From Nostocales cyanobacterium PMM_0081 (GTDB lineage: Bacteria; Cyanobacteriota; Cyanobacteriia; Cyanobacteriales; Nostocaceae), in assembly GCA_949127805.1 (NCBI GenBank), contig CASBQC010000085.1:1-30472 (forward strand): 30,472 nt of DNA, in the 5' to 3' direction. Below, piece by piece: positions 3,214-16,122 of this stretch. Position 1 is the stretch's first letter. Each line of letters begins with the position of its first letter. The notes under the pieces are model-generated. The model had not been told where the DNA came from. It worked only from the letters and a program-made list of their open reading frames with translations, and did not search any database. Made by a program: the position numbers and the translations under genes.

Positions 3214-3448
3214 AACCCTTAATCTCAATATTGAGCAAATCATCAGATTAGTGAAGCAACTAGCAATTCCAGAGCAGCATATGATATTGCAAGCCATTAA
3301 AGCAGAGGAAGATACTTGGTGGCAAAATAGACTCAATTACGGAGAGATACAGATGCGTTCTTTGAGTACAACACAAGGACTAAACTGGGATCTTATGACT
3401 GAACAGGAGCGAGAAGAATTCATAGACAATATCTTGCACGAGCAATGA
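3209..3448 (+). CDS. Putative antitoxin partner of the downstream PIN toxin
   Basis: 79-aa ORF whose stop overlaps the PIN gene start by 4 nt (ATGA). An SD-like GAGG lies upstream. No family was recognised. Confidence 0.55.
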   Translation: MATLNLNIEQIIRLVKQLAIPEQHMILQAIKAEEDTWWQNRLNYGEIQMRSLSTTQGLNWDLMTEQEREEFIDNILHEQ

Positions 3449-5117: not shown

Positions 5118-5477
5118 CTAAAATGGAATCCATTCGAGCCGATTTATCCATTCTTCTGCCTCAGTCGTCTCCCAAACCAGCAAAAGTTCTTGTGACAGTT
5201 CTCCTAATGGTATCCTGTCCCGCACCCAAAATAGTCCCCAAATCTGTCCGCCGGCTGCCCAATGTGCTTCCATATGAGCAGGCATACTAGCACGATTATC
5301 TGTCACCAAGAGCCTTTGCGATCGCTCCAGATATAACAACACATCCGGATCGAGTGTACCTAATTGCGGTGCATTACTTTCACCCACACGTAAGATATCT
5401 ATAGCAGGGTTGAGACGCAGCACAGCCACTTTCAAACGAGGTGATAAATTTTCGTCTAGCAAAAAACGCACTTTCAC
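5118..5477 (-). CDS. DUF5615-family (PIN-like) putative toxin
   Basis: 119 aa starting MKVRFLLDENLSPRL. It overlaps the upstream DUF433 gene by 4 nt. Confidence 0.7.
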   Translation of the reverse strand: MKVRFLLDENLSPRLKVAVLRLNPAIDILRVGESNAPQLGTLDPDVLLYLERSQRLLVTDNRASMPAHMEAHWAAGGQIWGLFWVRDRIPLGELSQELLLVWETTEAEEWINRLEWIPF

Positions 5478-8571: not shown

Positions 8572-8706
8572 GTTTTTCGCCGACCAGTCATAGTAATGAA
8601 TACTTGAGGGATTGTCCACGTATGCTTACCTTACAGTCAAAAATTTACCTCTGTCAATTCCCTACGAATTTATGCAAAGCTGTACTTAGCAACTTAAAGT
8701 GAATCC

Positions 8707-10056
8707 ATGAGCCTTTCTCTCATTAGTCAGTATCATTTCCTCGATCGCTTTTTTCGACTGGCGATCGCCAACGTTGCCTCTAACATCATGGTGCCCCTGT
8801 CAGGTTTAATTAGTGTGGCTTTCTTAGGACACCTAAAAGAAATCCATCATTTAGCAGGAGTTGCCCTCGCTGGCATCCTATTTAACTACATCTACTTCCT
8901 TTTTACGTTTTTACGGATGGGAACCACTGGGGTAACTGCTCAAACAGTGGGACAGGATGACCGCGAAGAAATGCTGCGAGTAGGACTGCGGAATGGATTA
9001 GTGGCTTTGGGTTTAGGTGTGGCAATCTTGATTTTACAATACCCTATCCGAGAACTGTGGTTTGCCATAGTCAGTGCTACTCCAGAAGTTAAAGCTTCAG
9101 GGATTGACTATTTCAACGTCCGAATTTGGGGAGCGCCGGCGGTTTTGTTTAATTACGTTCTCATTGGTTGGCTGCTGGGACGAGAAATGAGTGGCAAGGT
9201 GTTGCTGATGTCTGTAGTGGGCAACGGTGCTAATCTGGTGTTCGACTACTTCTACATTATCCGATGGGAGTGGGCAAGCACGGGAGCCGGAATTTCTCAG
9301 GCTCTCAGTCAATATTTGATGTTGTTAGTAGGGCTAGTTTTGGCAAGTCAAGACATTCAGTTCAAAGAGTTACAAACAGCATTCCAACAGCTTTGGGATT
9401 GGTTAGCCTTTAAATCTGCTTTTACCCTCAATGGCAATATTTTTGTCCGCTCTTTAGCCAATATGACTACCTGGGCAGTTTTCACTAACATCAGTGCCGT
9501 AATGGGGACGACTGTTTTAGCGGAAAATGCTTTGCTATTTCAGATAGTATGCCTGAGCGTATTCTTTGTCGAAGGAATTGGTTTTGCCACCGAAACCCTC
9601 ACCGGGAATTTTAAAGGTCAGATGGCTAACGACCAATTTATCCCCTTATTGCAGGTTGCAGTAGGAACCAGCCTGTCGGCAGGACTTTCCATAGCGGCAG
9701 CCTGCATCCTTTTTCCTGAAACTATCTTTGGTTTATTATCCGACCATACTGAAATTATCGAGCCAATTAAAGTTTACGTTCCTTGGTTAATCCTCGTTTT
9801 AGGATGTCAGGCTATTGCTAGTAGCCTCGATGGGTACTTCGGAGGTTTAGCGGAAGGGAAACCTATCCGTAACTCCGCTTTATGCGGTGCTTTATTGGGA
9901 TTTGCACCCTTAGCAGTCTGGGCATGGCAAGCTCATAGTAACCAGATTTTGTGGCTGGCTATGTCGGGGTTTATGGTAACTAAAATGGTAGCGATCGCCG
10001 TTCAAGTGCCAAGAACTCTTCAGAATGACACTGAAGCGATCGCCTCTATGGATTAA
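8707..10056 (+). CDS. MATE-family efflux transporter
   Basis: 449 aa, polytopic with about 12 hydrophobic segments. The N-terminal pattern (LAIANVASNIMVPLSGLISVAFLGHL) is typical of DinF/NorM-type MATE proteins. Confidence 0.8.
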   Translation: MSLSLISQYHFLDRFFRLAIANVASNIMVPLSGLISVAFLGHLKEIHHLAGVALAGILFNYIYFLFTFLRMGTTGVTAQTVGQDDREEMLRVGLRNGLVALGLGVAILILQYPIRELWFAIVSATPEVKASGIDYFNVRIWGAPAVLFNYVLIGWLLGREMSGKVLLMSVVGNGANLVFDYFYIIRWEWASTGAGISQALSQYLMLLVGLVLASQDIQFKELQTAFQQLWDWLAFKSAFTLNGNIFVRSLANMTTWAVFTNISAVMGTTVLAENALLFQIVCLSVFFVEGIGFATETLTGNFKGQMANDQFIPLLQVAVGTSLSAGLSIAAACILFPETIFGLLSDHTEIIEPIKVYVPWLILVLGCQAIASSLDGYFGGLAEGKPIRNSALCGALLGFAPLAVWAWQAHSNQILWLAMSGFMVTKMVAIAVQVPRTLQNDTEAIASMD

Positions 10057-10081
10057 TGTCACGAATCTAATTATTAAAATT

Positions 10082-11098
10082 ATGAACTTACCCTCATCGA
10101 GCCGACTACAGCTTACGCCAGACTTGAATATCTGCCGTATATTAAATGGAATGTGGCAAGTATCTGGCAAGCATGGAGCAATTGACTCCACCAGCGCTAT
10201 TCAGACTATGTTCGATTATATAGATGCTGGTTTCACTACTTGGGATTTGGCAGATATTTACGGTCCAGCAGAAGATTTTATCGGTCAATTTCGGCATCAA
10301 CTAGCTACAATTCGAGGACAAGAAGCTTTATCTAATATTCAAGCCTTCACCAAATGGGTGCCAAAACCTACTCCCATGACTAAGCAGTTTGTTGAGGAGC
10401 AAATTAATATTTCCCGCCAAAGGATGGGAGTTAAAACTCTCGATTTATTGCAATTCCACTGCTGGAGATACCAAGATAACAACTATCTGGATGCCCTCAA
10501 GTATTTGTCAGAACTTCAGGAAGAGGGCAAAATCAAACACCTTGGCTTAACCAACTTTGATACCGAACACTTGCAGGAGATTGTTGAGGCTGGAATTAAT
10601 ATTGTTTCCCATCAGGTACAGTTTTCTCTTATCGATCGCCGTCCGGAAGTGAACATGATACCATTATGTCTGGAAAAGAATATCAAGCTATTCACCTATG
10701 GCACTCTCTGCGGTGGCTTTTTGTCAGAGAAGTTTTTGGGACAACCCGAACCTCAAGCAGAACAGCTTTCTACCGCTAGCTTGAAGGAATATAAAATCAT
10801 TATTGACAAATGGGGTGGTTGGGGTTTATTTCAAGAATTGCTGACTGTACTATCTTCTATTGCCACCAAACATGGAGTTAGCATTTCTAATATTGCAGTT
10901 CGCTATGTCCTCGATAAACCTGCGGTAGCTGGTGCGATCGTTGGTGCGAGGTTAGGGATATCAGAGCATTTAAAGGATAATGCTAGAGTATTTGATTTGA
11001 TGCTGGATACAGAAGACCTTGACCAAATTAATGCTGTGTTAAAAAACTCACATAATTTGTATAACTTCATCGGTGATTGTGGGGACGAATTAAGATAG
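10082..11098 (+). CDS. Aldo/keto reductase
   Basis: The ATG at 10082 is preferred over the track start at 10025, which overlaps the MATE gene. AKR-type motifs are present (GFTTWDLADIYGPAE, HLGLTNFD, VSHQVQFSL). Confidence 0.8.
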   Translation: MNLPSSSRLQLTPDLNICRILNGMWQVSGKHGAIDSTSAIQTMFDYIDAGFTTWDLADIYGPAEDFIGQFRHQLATIRGQEALSNIQAFTKWVPKPTPMTKQFVEEQINISRQRMGVKTLDLLQFHCWRYQDNNYLDALKYLSELQEEGKIKHLGLTNFDTEHLQEIVEAGINIVSHQVQFSLIDRRPEVNMIPLCLEKNIKLFTYGTLCGGFLSEKFLGQPEPQAEQLSTASLKEYKIIIDKWGGWGLFQELLTVLSSIATKHGVSISNIAVRYVLDKPAVAGAIVGARLGISEHLKDNARVFDLMLDTEDLDQINAVLKNSHNLYNFIGDCGDELR

Positions 11099-12049
11099 AT
11101 CGTAATCACAATAGGCTAAATAAGGTTGTAACTGCTTAAGAATTTTCTCAGAATTTTTTTTCACTTCTGGTAACAAGTTAAGCGGACGTGGTTCGCTTAA
11201 TTTGTCATATTCTAAAGTGACTTTTGCGGATAAACCCAGAAATTTCAAAATGTTTTGGATAGTTGTTTCTGGTTGATCGCAGAGGTCTTCATAGCTGACA
11301 GAAATATAATTATGTTGGGGTAGCGATTCAACATTATTCAAGAAAAAATTTACCTCTTCTATATACTTTTTAGTAATGCGATGCAAACCCTGCTCAAAAT
11401 ATTGAGAATAAGATAGCCACTTAAAAGCACGTTGCCAGGGGTTGTCAACCAGACTTTGATAGTCTTTACTAATTAATGCTACATAAGGATTCTTTTTCAA
11501 CCAAAGATTACGGTTAGCTTTCAACCAAGAATTAATTACTGGAATTGGATGTCGGTGAATGAAAATGAATTTAGCTTCTGGAAAAGTCTTTTTAATAAAC
11601 AAAAATGGTTGGAAATACGGAGACTTAAGCAATAAGGGTTGGTTAGTTTTGGAGATAAATTGAATCTTCTGGCACAGCTCGATAAATCGGTCTAAGTTGC
11701 TTGATTTGAGGTTAAATTCATACTCACTAATTGCAAAAGCATACTCTTCCGGTAAATCTGGAGTTACTTTAACTTGATCAATACCGCGAGTATTAATCCC
11801 TAGAGAGTAAAAATATTTTTCTAACTCTTGTTTTGCTTTAGTTTCTATCTGATTAAAATGATTATAAAGCAGTTCATCATATTTGATAATCTGATAAGCA
11901 CTAACAAAATTAAAACACTCAGTTGCCACCAAAGCTTGGTACAAAAAAGTTGTCCCCGAACGTGGAAATCCCATAATAAATATCGGCTTAAAATCAACTG
12001 ACGATAGTAAGTCCAGGTAGGGGCGATCGGCAATACCATTAATAGTCAT
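11090..12049 (-). CDS. Sulfotransferase-family protein
   Basis: 319 aa with the 5'-PSB loop GFPRSGTTFLYQ. It is the last gene of the minus-strand operon, and its 3' end overlaps the AKR 3' end by 9 nt. Confidence 0.8.
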   Translation of the reverse strand: MTINGIADRPYLDLLSSVDFKPIFIMGFPRSGTTFLYQALVATECFNFVSAYQIIKYDELLYNHFNQIETKAKQELEKYFYSLGINTRGIDQVKVTPDLPEEYAFAISEYEFNLKSSNLDRFIELCQKIQFISKTNQPLLLKSPYFQPFLFIKKTFPEAKFIFIHRHPIPVINSWLKANRNLWLKKNPYVALISKDYQSLVDNPWQRAFKWLSYSQYFEQGLHRITKKYIEEVNFFLNNVESLPQHNYISVSYEDLCDQPETTIQNILKFLGLSAKVTLEYDKLSEPRPLNLLPEVKKNSEKILKQLQPYLAYCDYDLS

Positions 12050-12065
12050 TTCTTACTCGAACTAA

Positions 12066-12842
12066 TTAAACATGACCGTAATAGTCGCGGTGAACGACCA
12101 CAGAATAAGCATAATCTAATAGCGTCCCCGCACTAAATACTGGAACATCAATTGCTCGTTGAATAGCGCGGGCAAAGGGTGGAAGTCCAGTACACTCTAG
12201 TACCATAGCCCCCATATTGGGATGAGCTTGATAAAAGTCAACAGCGAATTCTACCAACTCTTTTTCCAATAGGTTATAGTCAGCTTGACGCACACTCGCT
12301 TCTGGGTACATATATAAATCCATGAATCCCGAACAGCAATCCGCTTCTTTGATGCCAGCTAGGACATAATTGCTACCTGGTTGGATGCCCACAGCTTTGA
12401 GGTGAGCTTCTGTCAGAAAATCCTTGAATGCTACCATAACACCTACTACTTTGTTGGCACCAACAATTTGTTGCGCTAAGGGAACTTGCAATAGGGTTGA
12501 CATGAAAGCAGGAACATCAACTGACTCAGCAATTTCTTTTTGAAAGTATCCAAAGTAGCCACACTCGCTGACAATTGCACGACAGCCAATTTTTTCTAAC
12601 TTTTTCGCCGCCCGTTTTATCGCTTCCAGACAGGGCGACTTGTCTTCTGCCCAAATTAAAGCTTGAGCATCTATTCCCTCAGCTATCTCGTATTGCATGG
12701 GAAACGGGTAAGCACTGGCATTTCGCACATCACCTGGAAAACCGGGATTAATCCAATCTAAAATAATCACACCTAAACCCATCCCATAGCAAAGGTGATT
12801 TTTACGAGTTTTAATTGATTTGATTCCTAAATCTCGATACAT
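12066..12842 (-). CDS. Asp/Glu/hydantoin-racemase superfamily protein
   Basis: 258 aa with GVIILDWINPGFPGDVRNASAYPFPMQY and two Cys motifs (SECGYF and LECTGLPPF) typical of this two-thiol fold. Confidence 0.65.
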   Translation of the reverse strand: MYRDLGIKSIKTRKNHLCYGMGLGVIILDWINPGFPGDVRNASAYPFPMQYEIAEGIDAQALIWAEDKSPCLEAIKRAAKKLEKIGCRAIVSECGYFGYFQKEIAESVDVPAFMSTLLQVPLAQQIVGANKVVGVMVAFKDFLTEAHLKAVGIQPGSNYVLAGIKEADCCSGFMDLYMYPEASVRQADYNLLEKELVEFAVDFYQAHPNMGAMVLECTGLPPFARAIQRAIDVPVFSAGTLLDYAYSVVVHRDYYGHV

Positions 12843-12863
12843 TCTCCCTCAAAATAAATCATA

Positions 12864-13619
12864 CTAAACACCCACAATCATCTTCACTGTTACTGGTTCC
12901 CCATCTAAACCAAATTGCTCCTTAGTATGGTCAATGGTGTCTGGATCTACATAAGTTCCAAAGATGCGATCGAACAATGTGAATAGAGCGCCTAGATTTT
13001 TACCATGAAATTGGGGATTAGACAAATGATGTACATGGTGGTAGCGCGGCGTAGCAATAATCCATTCCACTACTTTCATCCAAGAGCGCCATTTAACATT
13101 GAGATGACACATAGTATTATGAACTGATGCAACAACACCAAATAAAATTATTATTTGGGCAGGAATTGCCAGCAGTGGAAACCACAAAATTGTACTTCTC
13201 AATATCCATCTACTGACCAAGCTAGATTTTTGTCCACTTAGCCACCACATTTTTTCTATTGAATGATGCCATTTATGGGTTTGCCAGAATAATCGACTAT
13301 TGTGCATTTGCCAATGAATAACATAGAGACTGAGTTCTCTTAAGAAAATAGCAATAATAATTCTTATAAATAGGGGAATAGATAAAACGTTTGTCCAGCC
13401 TACTGCTTCTATCAGCGATGGGGGAATGACTAGGTTTTGCAAAGGAGAATAAGCATAGGCAACAATGACGATATACACCATCATTATTGCAGCACTTTTA
13501 GATTCCTTGAGAGCTTCGCCTGAATACTTTATTTCTTGTGAAGGGTCTTTTTTTTCCCAAATCCAGAGTACAATACCTGGAATAAACAGCATTGACCATG
13601 CTATAACTAAATCGCGCAT
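12864..13619 (-). CDS. Fatty-acid hydroxylase / sterol-desaturase-family membrane oxygenase
   Basis: 251 aa and hydrophobic, with the histidine boxes HWQMHN, HKWHH and HHVHH. Confidence 0.8.
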   Translation of the reverse strand: MRDLVIAWSMLFIPGIVLWIWEKKDPSQEIKYSGEALKESKSAAIMMVYIVIVAYAYSPLQNLVIPPSLIEAVGWTNVLSIPLFIRIIIAIFLRELSLYVIHWQMHNSRLFWQTHKWHHSIEKMWWLSGQKSSLVSRWILRSTILWFPLLAIPAQIIILFGVVASVHNTMCHLNVKWRSWMKVVEWIIATPRYHHVHHLSNPQFHGKNLGALFTLFDRIFGTYVDPDTIDHTKEQFGLDGEPVTVKMIVGV

Positions 13620-13644
13620 CAGTTACCTCCCTGTTGATTTTTAC

Positions 13645-14979
13645 TTAACAATCTTGTTTAACCAACCGCAAACTAACCGGAGCTAAATTCGCATTCCGAC
13701 TTTGGGGTGTTACAGGCTGGTTATCTGCTAATCTTAATTGATAGCCAGACACAGTAGTTGCCAAAATTAGCTTCATTAAATACAGAGCTAATTCCTCCCC
13801 AATACAACTCCGAATCCCACCACCAAACGGCATAAATTCATAGGCAGAAAACTGACGTTCAATAAAACGTTCTGGCTTAAACTTGTCCGGTTCAGGATAT
13901 AAATTTTCTTGTCGATGCAGCAGATAATTACTGATAGAAACTAAACTACCAGATTGTAATTCGTAACCTGTTATTTCAGTAGGTGTGTTGACACCGCGAG
14001 GCAGAATAAACATTGTAATCGGATACATTCGTAGAGTCTCATTGCAAACAGCAGTCAGATAGGGAAGACGATAAAGACTCATTGGCTCGGAACAGTCTCC
14101 TAAGTTTTCTATTTCTTCAAGCAGTTTTTCCTGAATTTCTGGATTACGGTAAACGCAGTACCACGACCAACAAATTGCAGCAGTAGTCGATTCATTTCCT
14201 GTGGATAATAGTAATAACAAGTTATCCAGTATTTCTACATCAGTTAGGGGCTGTCCCTGTTCGTCGCGAAACGACATCAATAGGGACAGCATATCTGTTT
14301 TATCTGGCTCTACACGAGTCCGACGTTCTGCTATTTCGGCATAAATTAGTTGTTCTATTTGCTGCCGTGTTTGGATAAATTTCTGCCCTAAGTTTCTCTT
14401 GCCTAAAACTTTGGGAAAAAACCTTAACAGGGGAAAGCCAGCGGTTTTAGCTGCGAACAAATTCAACAGAGAAACTATCAGATTTTTCAGATGTTGATAG
14501 CGCTCTTTTTGAGCAGAACCAAACAAAATTTCAATGAGAACTTGCAGCGTAATATCTTGTGCAACTTCCCAAGCCAAAAATGATTGGTTGATTGGTAACT
14601 GCTGCATCACTTGGTGGGTGATATCGCAAATTAATTGTCCGTAATAGCGTACCTGTTTTCCGTGTAGAGGAGGCATCAATATTTTCCGCAAAATTTGGTG
14701 GCGATCGCCTTCGCTTGTCGCTACTGAATTATTGCCAAATATTGCTGTTAACTCTCCAGGAAACGAGACAATTCCTAAATGTTTATCCCGATTTTCGATA
14801 ATCTGTTGAGCAGCTTGAGGAGTATAAAACATCATCAGAGGACTTCCCCAATCTACTCCTTTTGCCCAAAAAGCTTCTGGATGACTTTTAAATGCTCTTT
14901 CCCAGTAGCCAATAGGAGCGAGAATTAACTCAATTCTCTGCCACCATCCGGGAGTTTTCAAACTTTCAACTTGTTTCAT
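13645..14979 (-). CDS. Cytochrome P450
   Basis: 444 aa with the heme-binding loop FGGGIRSCIGEELA, an ETLR (K-helix) motif and the I-helix LSTGNESTT. Confidence 0.9.
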   Translation of the reverse strand: MKQVESLKTPGWWQRIELILAPIGYWERAFKSHPEAFWAKGVDWGSPLMMFYTPQAAQQIIENRDKHLGIVSFPGELTAIFGNNSVATSEGDRHQILRKILMPPLHGKQVRYYGQLICDITHQVMQQLPINQSFLAWEVAQDITLQVLIEILFGSAQKERYQHLKNLIVSLLNLFAAKTAGFPLLRFFPKVLGKRNLGQKFIQTRQQIEQLIYAEIAERRTRVEPDKTDMLSLLMSFRDEQGQPLTDVEILDNLLLLLSTGNESTTAAICWSWYCVYRNPEIQEKLLEEIENLGDCSEPMSLYRLPYLTAVCNETLRMYPITMFILPRGVNTPTEITGYELQSGSLVSISNYLLHRQENLYPEPDKFKPERFIERQFSAYEFMPFGGGIRSCIGEELALYLMKLILATTVSGYQLRLADNQPVTPQSRNANLAPVSLRLVKQDC

Positions 14980-14982
14980 AAA

Positions 14983-16122
14983 TTAACTAGAGTAATCCTC
15001 TAATTTTCCTTCCCTAACCGTATCCAATGTAAAGCAATGGAACCCACCACCAAAAAGTCGTCGGTGCCTGTGCCTGACTGGAATGGGTGTAAAACCATGC
15101 TTCTCTAAGGTTGTCATCAATTCGGGAAACAAAGAGTTAACAATTACTTTTTCCTCATCCACCGATAAAATATTTAAGTCAATATATTTGGTGGTCAAAA
15201 TCAACTCATCATCTTCATATTGAGGAAAAATATTCTCCGTTGGTTCTGGAGGATAAATGATATCCCATTTTTGCAAGAATTCTGGCAGTTTATCTAGAAA
15301 TTTGGGGTGGCGCAACAACAATTTACCCGGTTTTAAAGGCAGTATAATACTGTCAATATGATTGTCGGTCAACTGAAAAATCTTGTGTAATCTGAATTTA
15401 TCCCCCAAATGTCGCTCCAACCACTGAAATCCTAACCAATGATTTTCTGTCGCCACATTAACGATAATATCTTTGCCCAAACGGACGCATTGGGCACCAT
15501 CAATCATCATCTCATATCCGACATCAAATTCTGAGGTGTTTTGAGTGTAAATGTTTTCCACACAGGGGGTGCGATCGCTTGACACATAAGACATATCAAA
15601 AGAGCGATCGGTCATTATCGGTCTGGGCATCGTCGTCCATTTTGCCCCTTGATTAAAATAATGATAAAATATTGGTTTCAATAAGTCGTTCTCGAAATAC
15701 CTAGCTCTGATTTGAGGAGGCGTTTCAATAATTTCGTTACCAATGATTATCGCTTGGTCGCGCACATTTAAGGCGGGAATGCAAGTCGCCTCCCAATAAG
15801 GAGTCTTAAACTTAATGGGATGACTCAACGTCATAGGTTTGTGGACTTTCACCCCTAACCCTTCCAGGGTTTTGACCAGTTCCTCTACATCCTCTGCTAA
15901 CTCTTCGAGATATTTTTTTCCGAGCTTCCTGGTTGAAGAGGTTTCTGCTGAGTTTTCCTTTTGGCTTTCCTTTTTTTCATAAGAAGGATACCAGAAGGCT
16001 GTGTAAGCCACATCATGGAAAAAAAGCTTAAAAGACAACTCCAAGTCTTGGGTATTGTAATTAATCGGCGACCCCACAATCACTTCTTTTAAGGAAGACC
16101 ATTCGTCAAAGCTGTTTACCAT
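14983..16122 (-). CDS. Amidinotransferase (glycine/inosamine amidinotransferase family)
   Basis: 379 aa. The N-terminus is WSSLKEVIVGSP and the C-terminal catalytic-Cys motif is GGGFHCFTLD. It is the first gene of the operon and lies 3 nt from the P450 gene. Confidence 0.8.
   Translation of the reverse strand: MVNSFDEWSSLKEVIVGSPINYNTQDLELSFKLFFHDVAYTAFWYPSYEKKESQKENSAETSSTRKLGKKYLEELAEDVEELVKTLEGLGVKVHKPMTLSHPIKFKTPYWEATCIPALNVRDQAIIIGNEIIETPPQIRARYFENDLLKPIFYHYFNQGAKWTTMPRPIMTDRSFDMSYVSSDRTPCVENIYTQNTSEFDVGYEMMIDGAQCVRLGKDIIVNVATENHWLGFQWLERHLGDKFRLHKIFQLTDNHIDSIILPLKPGKLLLRHPKFLDKLPEFLQKWDIIYPPEPTENIFPQYEDDELILTTKYIDLNILSVDEEKVIVNSLFPELMTTLEKHGFTPIPVRHRHRRLFGGGFHCFTLDTVREGKLEDYSS

Follow-up and report, generated by a model that had tools for sequence, protein, structure and literature searches.

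A compact gene cluster without an assembly line, predicted to make and export a guanidino metabolite, carries an exchangeable tailoring cassette in Nostocales cyanobacteria

Seven adjacent genes in a contig of the Nostocales cyanobacterium PMM_0081 (assembly GCA_949127805.1, contig CASBQC010000085.1, positions 1 to 30,472; the whole 30,472-nt stretch is herein the window) probably form a self-contained Nostocales cluster, occupying 8687 through 16124, that makes and exports a small oxidised guanidino metabolite without a polyketide synthase (PKS) or nonribosomal peptide synthetase (NRPS). Comparison with related loci separates these genes into two parts. The conserved core consists of an amidinotransferase, a cytochrome P450, a membrane hydroxylase, an aldo/keto reductase (AKR) and a multidrug and toxic compound extrusion (MATE) exporter; a racemase-fold enzyme and a sulfotransferase together make up one of at least three alternative decorating cassettes found at the same two breakpoints. 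The loci appear to represent a real family of orphan, PKS/NRPS-free guanidine clusters, and we infer the class of product from the enzyme families.

The cluster consists of two groups of genes. On the plus strand are a MATE efflux transporter (449 aa; 8707 through 10056; Pfam MatE, 116.9 bits) and an AKR (357 aa as the longest open reading frame [ORF]; 10025 through 11098; Pfam Aldo_ket_red, 223.9 bits), which converge on a five-gene operon on the minus strand. The first gene of the operon encodes a predicted L-arginine-dependent amidinotransferase (379 aa; 14983 through 16122), recognized by full-length matches to solved amidinotransferases. It is followed by a cytochrome P450 (444 aa; 13645 through 14979; Pfam p450, 223 bits), a membrane di-iron hydroxylase/desaturase (251 aa; 12864 through 13619; Pfam FA_hydroxylase, 83.7 bits, cut-off 31), a two-cysteine enzyme with an Asp/Glu/hydantoin-racemase fold (258 aa; 12066 through 12842; NCBIfam PRK07475, 259 bits, cut-off 231) and a 3′-phosphoadenosine 5′-phosphosulfate (PAPS)-type sulfotransferase (319 aa; 11090 through 12049; Pfam Sulfotransfer_3, 87.5 bits, cut-off 27; Sulfotransfer_1, 57.6 bits, cut-off 22). 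In the ORF list the gaps between the five genes are 3, 25, 21 and 16 nt, the P450 gene lying 3 nt downstream of the amidinotransferase gene, and inspection of the gap sequences revealed a purine-rich, ribosome-binding-like motif in each, of the GGGAGG/GAGGGAG/GAGTAAG type just 5′ of the hydroxylase, racemase and sulfotransferase starts. The AKR and sulfotransferase genes share 9 nt at their 3′ ends. For the AKR, an internal ATG at 10082 (338 aa) is the probable true start, because 338-aa genes are called in two related loci (L081 and L092). Motif and alignment checks found the catalytic motifs intact in all enzymes of the cluster.

The original prediction had described five tightly spaced minus-strand genes met by a converging AKR and MATE, and both the coordinates and the 3- to 25-nt gaps were reproduced. 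Pfam and NCBIfam also support the enzyme families that it named in six of the seven cases; the amidinotransferase is the exception, and its family was recovered from full-length matches to the sequences of solved structures. The claimed lack of a biosynthetic core likewise stands: a domain scan of the ORFs found no PKS, NRPS or SxtA-like gene in the whole 30-kb window. AMP-binding, ketosynthase, condensation and amidohydrolase domains are all missing from the scanned ORFs, and no unscanned ORF of 80 aa or more is longer than 141 aa.

To place the cluster among its relatives, one genome per species (185,579 species) was scanned, yielding 401 stretches that encode an amidinotransferase relative; 80 loci were kept, contigs with close homologues were added and all genes were then compared. 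Only a handful of the 80 kept loci carry the core (herein type A), and their distribution is patchy. One contig (L092, GCA_965184865.1) has all seven genes in the order of the window, with amino acid identities to the window of 94% for the MATE exporter, 90% for the AKR, 93% for the sulfotransferase, 96% for the racemase-fold enzyme, 61% for the hydroxylase, 93% for the P450 and 94% for the amidinotransferase. A Joint Genome Institute (JGI) metagenome contig (L084) carries six of the seven up to the contig end; over the two loci the identities are 90 to 96%, with the hydroxylase at 59 to 61%. Proteins at least 90% identical to the sulfotransferase form a cluster of six members from six assemblies, and the corresponding amidinotransferase cluster has 27 members, including several Nostoc metagenome-assembled genomes (MAGs), Brasilonema and Plectonema radiosum. 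The genes thus recur together in other assemblies, which goes against the chance adjacency that would have refuted the original prediction, and the core operon is kept in relatives.

The limits of this conservation are sharp. Between the window and L092, nucleotide homology of about 92% runs from 20 nt ahead of the MATE start to the amidinotransferase start. A blastn comparison of the window with seven loci (L001, L003, L004, L005, L084, L085 and L092) shows homology of 86 to 93% that starts at 8687 through 8692 and ends at 16122 through 16171, and outside these limits the flanks of the window and the seven loci are unrelated. Three of the loci (L003, L084 and L092) have a common flank on the amidinotransferase side, with a ferredoxin and a GFO/IDH oxidoreductase, and the window, L001 and L004 each lie in separate surroundings, giving at least three genomic contexts overall. 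Given these sharp common boundaries and differing flanks, the seven genes constitute a discrete block that has moved between contexts. A search for terminal repeats or other mobile-element signatures at the block ends gave only short chance matches.

Within the block, homology to L001, L003, L004 and L005 breaks at 11098/11099 and is regained at 12852 through 12865, positions that coincide with the ends of the sulfotransferase and racemase genes. The slot so defined (11099 through 12852 in the window) is occupied by the racemase-fold and sulfotransferase genes in three Nostocales contigs: the window, L084 and L092. In Nostoc sp. CCY 9925 (L001) it holds a gene for a 457-aa protein resembling Condensation, alcohol-acyltransferase (AATase) and PapA_C domains; in Limnofasciculus baicalensis BBK-W-15 (L004), genes for a 342-aa methyltransferase-like protein (weak PRMT5 match) and a Formyl_trans_N-like protein; in Plectonema radiosum NIES-515 (L003), the Formyl_trans_N-like gene only; and in a MAG (L005), the methyltransferase-like gene only. 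From a common core and an exchangeable cassette, we predict that sister strains make differently decorated congeners of one scaffold.

A second variable site lies inside the core. The hydroxylase is only 45 to 61% identical between loci whose neighbouring genes are 90 to 97% identical (window, 12864 through 13619; L092, 7378 through 8133; L084, 8461 through 9216; L001, 12503 through 13249), and the window protein is the lone member of its own 90% cluster. Its last ~50 residues are nearly unchanged between loci, whereas the catalytic and membrane part has diverged. The hydroxylase gene is a divergence hot spot, a pattern that suggests allele replacement or diversifying selection on regiochemistry. 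The protein has four hydrophobic segments and His boxes HWQMH, HKWHH, HNTMCH and HHVHH at residues 102, 115, 167 and 194; its sole NCBIfam match is the ornithine-lipid hydroxylase OlsE, at 77 bits far under the cut-off of 475. Sequence searches of the hydroxylase, racemase-fold enzyme and sulfotransferase against solved structures returned nothing useful.

In phmmer searches against the Protein Data Bank (PDB), the amidinotransferase matches the SxtG structure over its full length (5.9e-54; query residues 2 through 377), with solved AGAT (7.3e-53), StrB1 (1.4e-46) and HsvA (4e-44) close behind; its identity to SxtG is 38%. Asp121, Asp207, His254 (in NHID) and Cys362 (in GGGFHC) are invariant in an alignment of 18 members of the clade, and Cys362 and the NHID histidine line up with the FHC cysteine and LHID histidine in SxtG, for which the catalytic residues are given as C362, H258, D209 and D131 (PMC12371840). 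These matches assign the protein to the AGAT/StrB1/SxtG/HsvA family, with transfer from arginine to an amine as the predicted reaction. Curated models fail to recognize it (no Pfam match even at E = 10, no NCBIfam match above noise); this is a gap in the libraries and not evidence against family membership. Public annotation names it a “glycine amidinotransferase”. It is the most conserved gene product of the block, at 92 to 97% identity, and is still 85% identical in L085.

A neighbour-joining tree resolves one amidinotransferase subclade per genomic context, all far from SxtG. The proteins do not group with enzymes of primary metabolism, the alternative that the original prediction had raised for its phylogenetic placement, and the clade occurs in varied specialised-metabolite contexts. 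Sister to the rest is an actinobacterial clade (54 to 57% identity) whose loci carry a type III PKS, two ECH-family genes, an aminotransferase and a PGM1-like ATP-grasp ligase, a gene set that resembles the pheganomycin pathway in its predicted enzymes. An attempt to deduce the acceptor amine from a context common to all clade members failed, there being at least six contexts, unrelated to one another and each matched by a separate subclade. In Rhizonema, Scytonema and Nostoc sp. P2039 MAGs, clade members lie with genes for an NRPS module and an aminotransferase; in Streptomyces they are accompanied by genes for P450s, TauD, PhyH and the racemase. Loci from Thiomargarita, Thioploca, Anaerolineae and actinobacteria (L018, L021, L024, L032 and L086) combine a clade member with a FAD_binding_4 oxidase and a MoaF-like protein, and L018 and L021 also have a P-type ATPase; this too is a recurring, undescribed set. 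The 7.6-kb contig L085 encodes a different sulfotransferase, a 2-oxoglutarate (2OG)-Fe(II) oxygenase, the amidinotransferase and a MATE exporter (92%).

The P450 carries the haem loop FGGGIRSCIG at residue 385 and the ExxR motif as ETLR at residue 314, and is 79 to 94% identical across all full type-A loci. The closest solved structures are taxadiene hydroxylase, CYP120 and CYP51/3A types, at 125 bits or less. Its best NCBIfam match is ApyO, a P450 of peptides made by the ribosome and modified after translation (RiPPs), at 133 bits against a cut-off of 525; terpene P450 models score equally. The 90% protein cluster to which the P450 belongs has a 37-aa Klebsiella fragment as representative, together with several 30- to 37-aa EamA fragments; this odd membership is an artefact of database clustering. 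The AKR, 93 to 94% identical across type-A loci and 90% in L092, has the mithramycin side-chain ketoreductase MtmW as its closest solved relative (6.6e-22).

Copies of two core genes are also present in Kamptonema sp. UHCC 0994 (L093, 10001 through 16226), where the MATE copy is 82% identical in amino acids (87% in nucleotides) and the P450 copy 75% (85%). Their partners there are a haem protein resembling indoleamine 2,3-dioxygenase (IDO), a threonine-dehydratase-like pyridoxal-phosphate (PLP) enzyme and a DkgA-like reductase. The locus retains ~48 nt of the 3′ end of an amidinotransferase gene upstream of the P450 gene and looks like a remodelled derivative of an ancestor that contained the amidinotransferase. 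Since it looks remodelled, its use as a guide to the P450 substrate calls for caution.

The MATE exporter is 90 to 94% identical across type-A loci, including the small locus L085. It scores 669.7 bits against the NCBIfam GntT equivalog NF041358 (cut-off 525), and we considered whether this match is evidence for a guanitoxin-like product. We rejected it as such: the label is used across cyanobacteria, and the other gnt families are absent. The NCBI Prokaryotic Genome Annotation Pipeline (PGAP) gives the GntT name to MATE proteins of Nostoc, Kamptonema, Planktothrix, Moorena, Scytonema, Waterburya and others, at 55 to 90% identity, and no gnt cluster is apparent in these genera here. The model seems too broad, and the match serves as a family label without substrate information.

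Of the two cassette proteins, the racemase-fold enzyme falls below the gathering threshold of Pfam Asp_Glu_race (24.7 against 31), and its Cys93 (ECGY) and Cys216 (LECTG) are invariant in the alignment. Its AlphaFold model has a predicted local distance difference test (pLDDT) score of 70, with low confidence over the N-terminal 52 residues. The top Foldseek matches of the model are hydantoin racemase (2eq5), Asp racemase (1jfl) and arylmalonate decarboxylase (AMDase), followed by Glu and allantoin racemases; the top hits have a probability of 1.00 and TM scores of 0.45 to 0.56. The model thus places the protein in the Asp/Glu/hydantoin racemase superfamily, with the two-domain fold and a putative catalytic cysteine pair. 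To our knowledge, the target of every solved relative of this fold is an acidic proton adjacent to a carboxylate or to a carbonyl within a ring. Homologues 68 to 70% identical occur in Chloroflexota (L087 and L088, gene at 10001 through 10786), next to genes for MttB-family methyltransferases, a methylaspartate-ammonia-lyase-like enzyme, an SBP_bac_5 ABC importer and OpuAC proteins, which suggests that there the family acts in the catabolism of a small nitrogenous acid of some kind. The enzyme is employed widely in small-molecule chemistry and is no marker of this pathway.

The sulfotransferase has the 5′-phosphosulfate loop PRSGTT at residues 29 through 34 and RHP...S at 165 through 173; domain scores and binding loops together identify it as a putative PAPS-dependent enzyme. 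It is 93% identical in L084 and L092 and absent from L001, L003, L004 and L005. Its metagenomic relatives (41 to 50%) are not in amidinotransferase clusters.

The type-A block has a more distant counterpart. An 11-gene operon (herein type B) is present in ten loci (L082, L019, L009, L011 through L014, L016, L017 and L022) and encodes an amidinotransferase, a sulfotransferase, a SnoaL-like protein, an Old Yellow Enzyme (OYE), two FA_hydroxylases, an AKR, two TauD proteins, a racemase homologue and an EamA transporter. Its carriers include Planktothrix (L082), Limnoraphis, Microseira, Lyngbya, Elainella, Floridaenema and Trichodesmium erythraeum IMS101 (L019, 4776136 through 4797269), which are filamentous and partly bloom-forming. 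Type B resembles the window in its amidinotransferase (71 to 75%), racemase-fold enzyme (61 to 67%) and FA_hydroxylases (39 to 47%), and in that a single operon also encodes an AKR, a sulfotransferase and an exporter. It differs in having no P450 and, in its place, the two TauD proteins, the OYE and the SnoaL-like protein; EamA replaces MATE. The type-B sulfotransferase and AKR are not orthologous to those of the window; for the sulfotransferases, orthology was rejected when the PAPS loop alone proved to align. The set of amidination, oxygenation, sulfation and export functions has therefore been assembled more than once. In Planktothrix the type-B operon adjoins genes for a carbamoyltransferase, a glycosyltransferase, a second sulfotransferase and a TylF methyltransferase.

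Taken together, the enzyme families suggest a route in which the Cys362/His254/Asp207 triad of the amidinotransferase would move the amidino group of L-arginine to the primary amine of a small primary metabolite. Our best guess for the acceptor is the amino group of an amino acid, which would give a guanidino acid. The P450 and the membrane di-iron hydroxylase would then oxidise C–H bonds of the guanidino skeleton, and the AKR would reduce a carbonyl arising along the route. In the allele of the window, the two-cysteine racemase-fold enzyme may invert a stereocentre next to a carboxylate or carbonyl, after which the PAPS-type sulfotransferase would esterify a newly made hydroxyl with sulfate; the MATE pump is predicted to export the product. 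An amino-acid acceptor is a tentative choice, held with weak confidence as something short of an even prospect. It is favoured because the nearest amidinotransferase relatives with an assigned pathway lie in clusters resembling an alpha-guanidino-acid route, and because the reactions of all solved racemase-superfamily members require an acidic proton next to a carboxylate or to a carbonyl in a ring. Tailoring and transport of free guanidines have cyanobacterial precedents in the sterol-desaturase-like SxtD, in SxtN, CyrJ and CyrK (PMC2885083), and in GntB, a transmembrane arginine hydroxylase (bioRxiv 10.1101/2023.03.21.533663).

Several observations weigh against the proposal of a dedicated cluster for a small guanidino metabolite. 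Enzymes of the FA_hydroxylase family and P450s like this one mostly have lipophilic substrates. Kamptonema pairs close copies of the P450 and MATE genes with different enzymes and has no amidinotransferase. Racemase homologues of ~70% identity also occur in the catabolic-looking Chloroflexota clusters, so that the presence of a racemase is not specific to biosynthesis. Amidinotransferase specificity may differ between context types, each of which has its own subclade. A sequence scan found promoter-like and terminator-like sites to be no commoner than in shuffled sequence, and no gene for an adenosine 5′-phosphosulfate (APS) kinase, a ferredoxin or a regulator lies within the block.

It is improbable, in our estimate, that the enzymes remodel membrane lipids, turning an amino-lipid head group of the ornithine or amino-hopanoid type into a guanidino lipid that the P450 and di-iron enzyme would hydroxylate before sulfo- or acyl-decoration. 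Such a role fits the OlsE match and four membrane segments of the hydroxylase, the use of terpenoids, sterols and fatty acids by the closest solved relatives of the P450, and the L001 cassette, whose PapA/alcohol-acyltransferase-like type is known from lipid esterification. However, an exporter (MATE, or EamA in type B) is kept in all variants, no lipid-synthesis or amino-lipid genes occur in or near any locus, all characterised amidinotransferases take soluble amines (PDB names; PMC12371840), and cyanobacteria have membrane hydroxylases whose known substrates are free arginine or guanidine intermediates. The same genes minus the amidinotransferase form the classic triad for oxidising, conjugating and exporting a foreign or host compound, with the P450 and hydroxylase as phase I, sulfo-, acyl- or methyl-transfer as phase II and the MATE pump as phase III. 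The conjugating enzyme is moreover the strain-variable part, many carriers are symbiotic Nostoc MAGs, and the close P450 and MATE copies in Kamptonema do without an amidinotransferase. Detoxification would leave the amidinotransferase as a passenger or with a separate role, yet it is the most conserved protein of the block, is translationally coupled to the P450 across the 3-nt gap and is missing from no type-A or type-B locus, nor from the small locus L085; the 48-nt remnant in Kamptonema points to an ancestor that contained it. We regard this account as quite improbable.

If the enzymes modified a very small ribosomal peptide, in the manner of biarylitide- or pheganomycin-type pathways, the P450 would cross-link it and the amidinotransferase would cap its N terminus. 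An amidinotransferase does stand next to a P450 in a Saccharothrix biarylitide cluster (PMC13417212), amidinotransferases are present in pheganomycin and thiovarsolin clusters, and ApyO is the best NCBIfam match of the P450, although it scores far below its cut-off and terpene models do equally well. A biarylitide-type cluster was rejected, since the 3-, 16-, 21- and 25-nt gaps contain no short ORF and leave no room for even a minimal precursor gene, and homology between loci stops at the amidinotransferase start codon, with no conserved upstream mini-gene; an ATP-grasp ligase is also lacking. We hold a RiPP to be very unlikely. The notion that chance made these genes neighbours, or that their role is in routine arginine metabolism (the formation of guanidinoacetate, for example), could appeal to the public annotation of the amidinotransferase and to the widespread, highly conserved racemase family, but is scarcely credible beside the single gene order in several assemblies, the sharp common boundaries with different flanks, the patchy distribution among the kept loci, and the exporter and tailoring enzymes within the block. 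Chance adjacency itself is excluded.

The small exported guanidino metabolite remains our preferred product. A more far-reaching possibility, which we rate as unlikely, is that type A, found in the window and in symbiotic or terrestrial Nostocales, and type B together make an unrecognised class of small guanidine alkaloids, built from an amino acid and an arginine-derived amidino group without PKS or NRPS. These might be cyclic and bioactive in the manner of saxitoxin or guanitoxin, with decoration (sulfate, acyl, methyl/formyl) varied by cassette exchange; with no Pfam or NCBIfam model for the key enzyme, they would escape standard genome mining.

The remaining genes of the window encode two NB-ARC/TPR proteins, toxin-antitoxin-like proteins, a PEP-CTERM protein, a Clp ATPase, an Mla-type transporter, a carotene-isomerase-like oxidoreductase and a GUN4 protein. 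The NB-ARC/TPR (STAND-type) genes are a paralogous pair at 267 through 2555 and 6484 through 8571, on the MATE side of the cluster; paralogous PIN-domain genes lie at 3445 through 3852 and 29835 through 30260, and a DUF433/DUF5615 pair at 5118 through 5806. The cluster sits in an accessory, defence-island-like region, and the genes flanking the block resemble those of Scytonema, Tolypothrix and Plectonema. Outside the block, the promoter and terminator scan gave its one good terminator-like hairpin, AGCCCGCAGAACATCGCGGGCT with a T-rich tail, a strong structure that occupies 16559 through 16590 (+). It lies between the amidinotransferase start and the PEP-CTERM gene, which are 780 nt apart; no plus-strand gene ends there, and it may be a small RNA or a relic. 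A guanidine or other riboswitch was sought and dismissed, with no Rfam match in the window at the gathering threshold and none in 8400 through 17000 at E ≤ 1.

The original prediction had not recognized this gene set as a described pathway, and the literature searched on cyanobacterial guanidine products and amidinotransferases bears it out: neither the type-A nor the type-B set is described in the papers found, which include a 2025 review of cyanobacterial guanidines (PMC12371840) and a 2026 survey of cyanobacterial amidinotransferases (10.64898/2026.09.06.749771). The survey covers amidinotransferases inside antiSMASH-called cyanobacterial clusters only (10.64898/2026.09.06.749771). The family was probably overlooked because its key enzyme escapes Pfam and NCBIfam and the published survey was confined to clusters so defined. 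If the reading is correct, a compact, easily cloned cluster of seven genes and 7.4 kb offers a new, experimentally tractable route to guanidine compounds. The swappable decoration cassette and hypervariable hydroxylase are a natural example of combinatorial tailoring, and, with related clusters in bloom-forming genera, an exported guanidine metabolite could matter for water safety and for the chemistry of symbiosis.

Among the guanidine products of cyanobacteria are the major toxins saxitoxin, cylindrospermopsin and guanitoxin. The original prediction likened the cluster to the tailoring and transport genes of the first two; the likeness holds at the level of families only: the amidinotransferase is 38% identical to SxtG, the sulfotransferase is not orthologous even to its type-B counterparts, and the APS kinase (CyrN/SxtO) has no equivalent here. 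Its sulfated product, too, applies to this allele, which carries the sulfotransferase, and not to the cluster at large, in which the racemase and sulfotransferase are accessory. In the saxitoxin pathway, SxtG amidinates an alpha-amino group, sterol-desaturase-like SxtD acts on a guanidine intermediate, SxtN is a sulfotransferase and MATE proteins are the exporters (PMC2885083). SxtD is of the FA_hydroxylase type, like the hydroxylase of the window; the window amidinotransferase, however, lies outside the SxtG branch, and the SxtA starter, the Rieske oxygenases SxtT/H and the carbamoyltransferase SxtI are sxt features without an equivalent in the window.

The guanitoxin (gnt) route is similar in being a PKS/NRPS-free path to a small guanidine toxin, in having a transmembrane hydroxylase, GntB, that works on a free guanidino amino acid, and in its MATE protein GntT. 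It needs no amidinotransferase, unlike the window cluster, and Pfam and NCBIfam scans found none of the GntA and GntC through GntJ families (PLP cyclase, aldolase, kinase, N-oxygenase and methyltransferases) in the window. Pheganomycin contains an alpha-guanidino acid, and its pathway makes an alpha-guanidino arylglycine (PMC8939145); ketomemicin clusters have an amidinotransferase and no NRPS or ribosomal route (PMC11943689). Clusters of these two actinobacterial types rely on a type III PKS-derived arylglycine or a PLP-dependent C-acyltransferase and on ATP-grasp joining to a peptide, none of which is encoded in the window, and they lack the set of FA_hydroxylase, sulfotransferase and MATE exporter found here.

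The cylindrospermopsin (cyr) cluster shares with the window an arginine-dependent amidinotransferase (CyrA), a PAPS sulfotransferase (CyrJ), a hydroxylase (CyrI) and a MATE exporter (CyrK) (PMC2885083). Beyond these it has the NRPS-PKS line CyrB through CyrF, the uracil-forming CyrG/H and its own APS kinase, all missing from the window, and hydroxylation is assigned to a 2OG oxygenase in cyr, whereas the window has a P450 and a membrane di-iron enzyme. All of the enzyme families are already known, as is the logic of amidinating, tailoring and exporting a metabolite in cyr, sxt and str; what is new is a cluster without an assembly line, its sharply bounded seven-gene block, the exchange of its cassette and a broader family that reaches bloom-forming genera.

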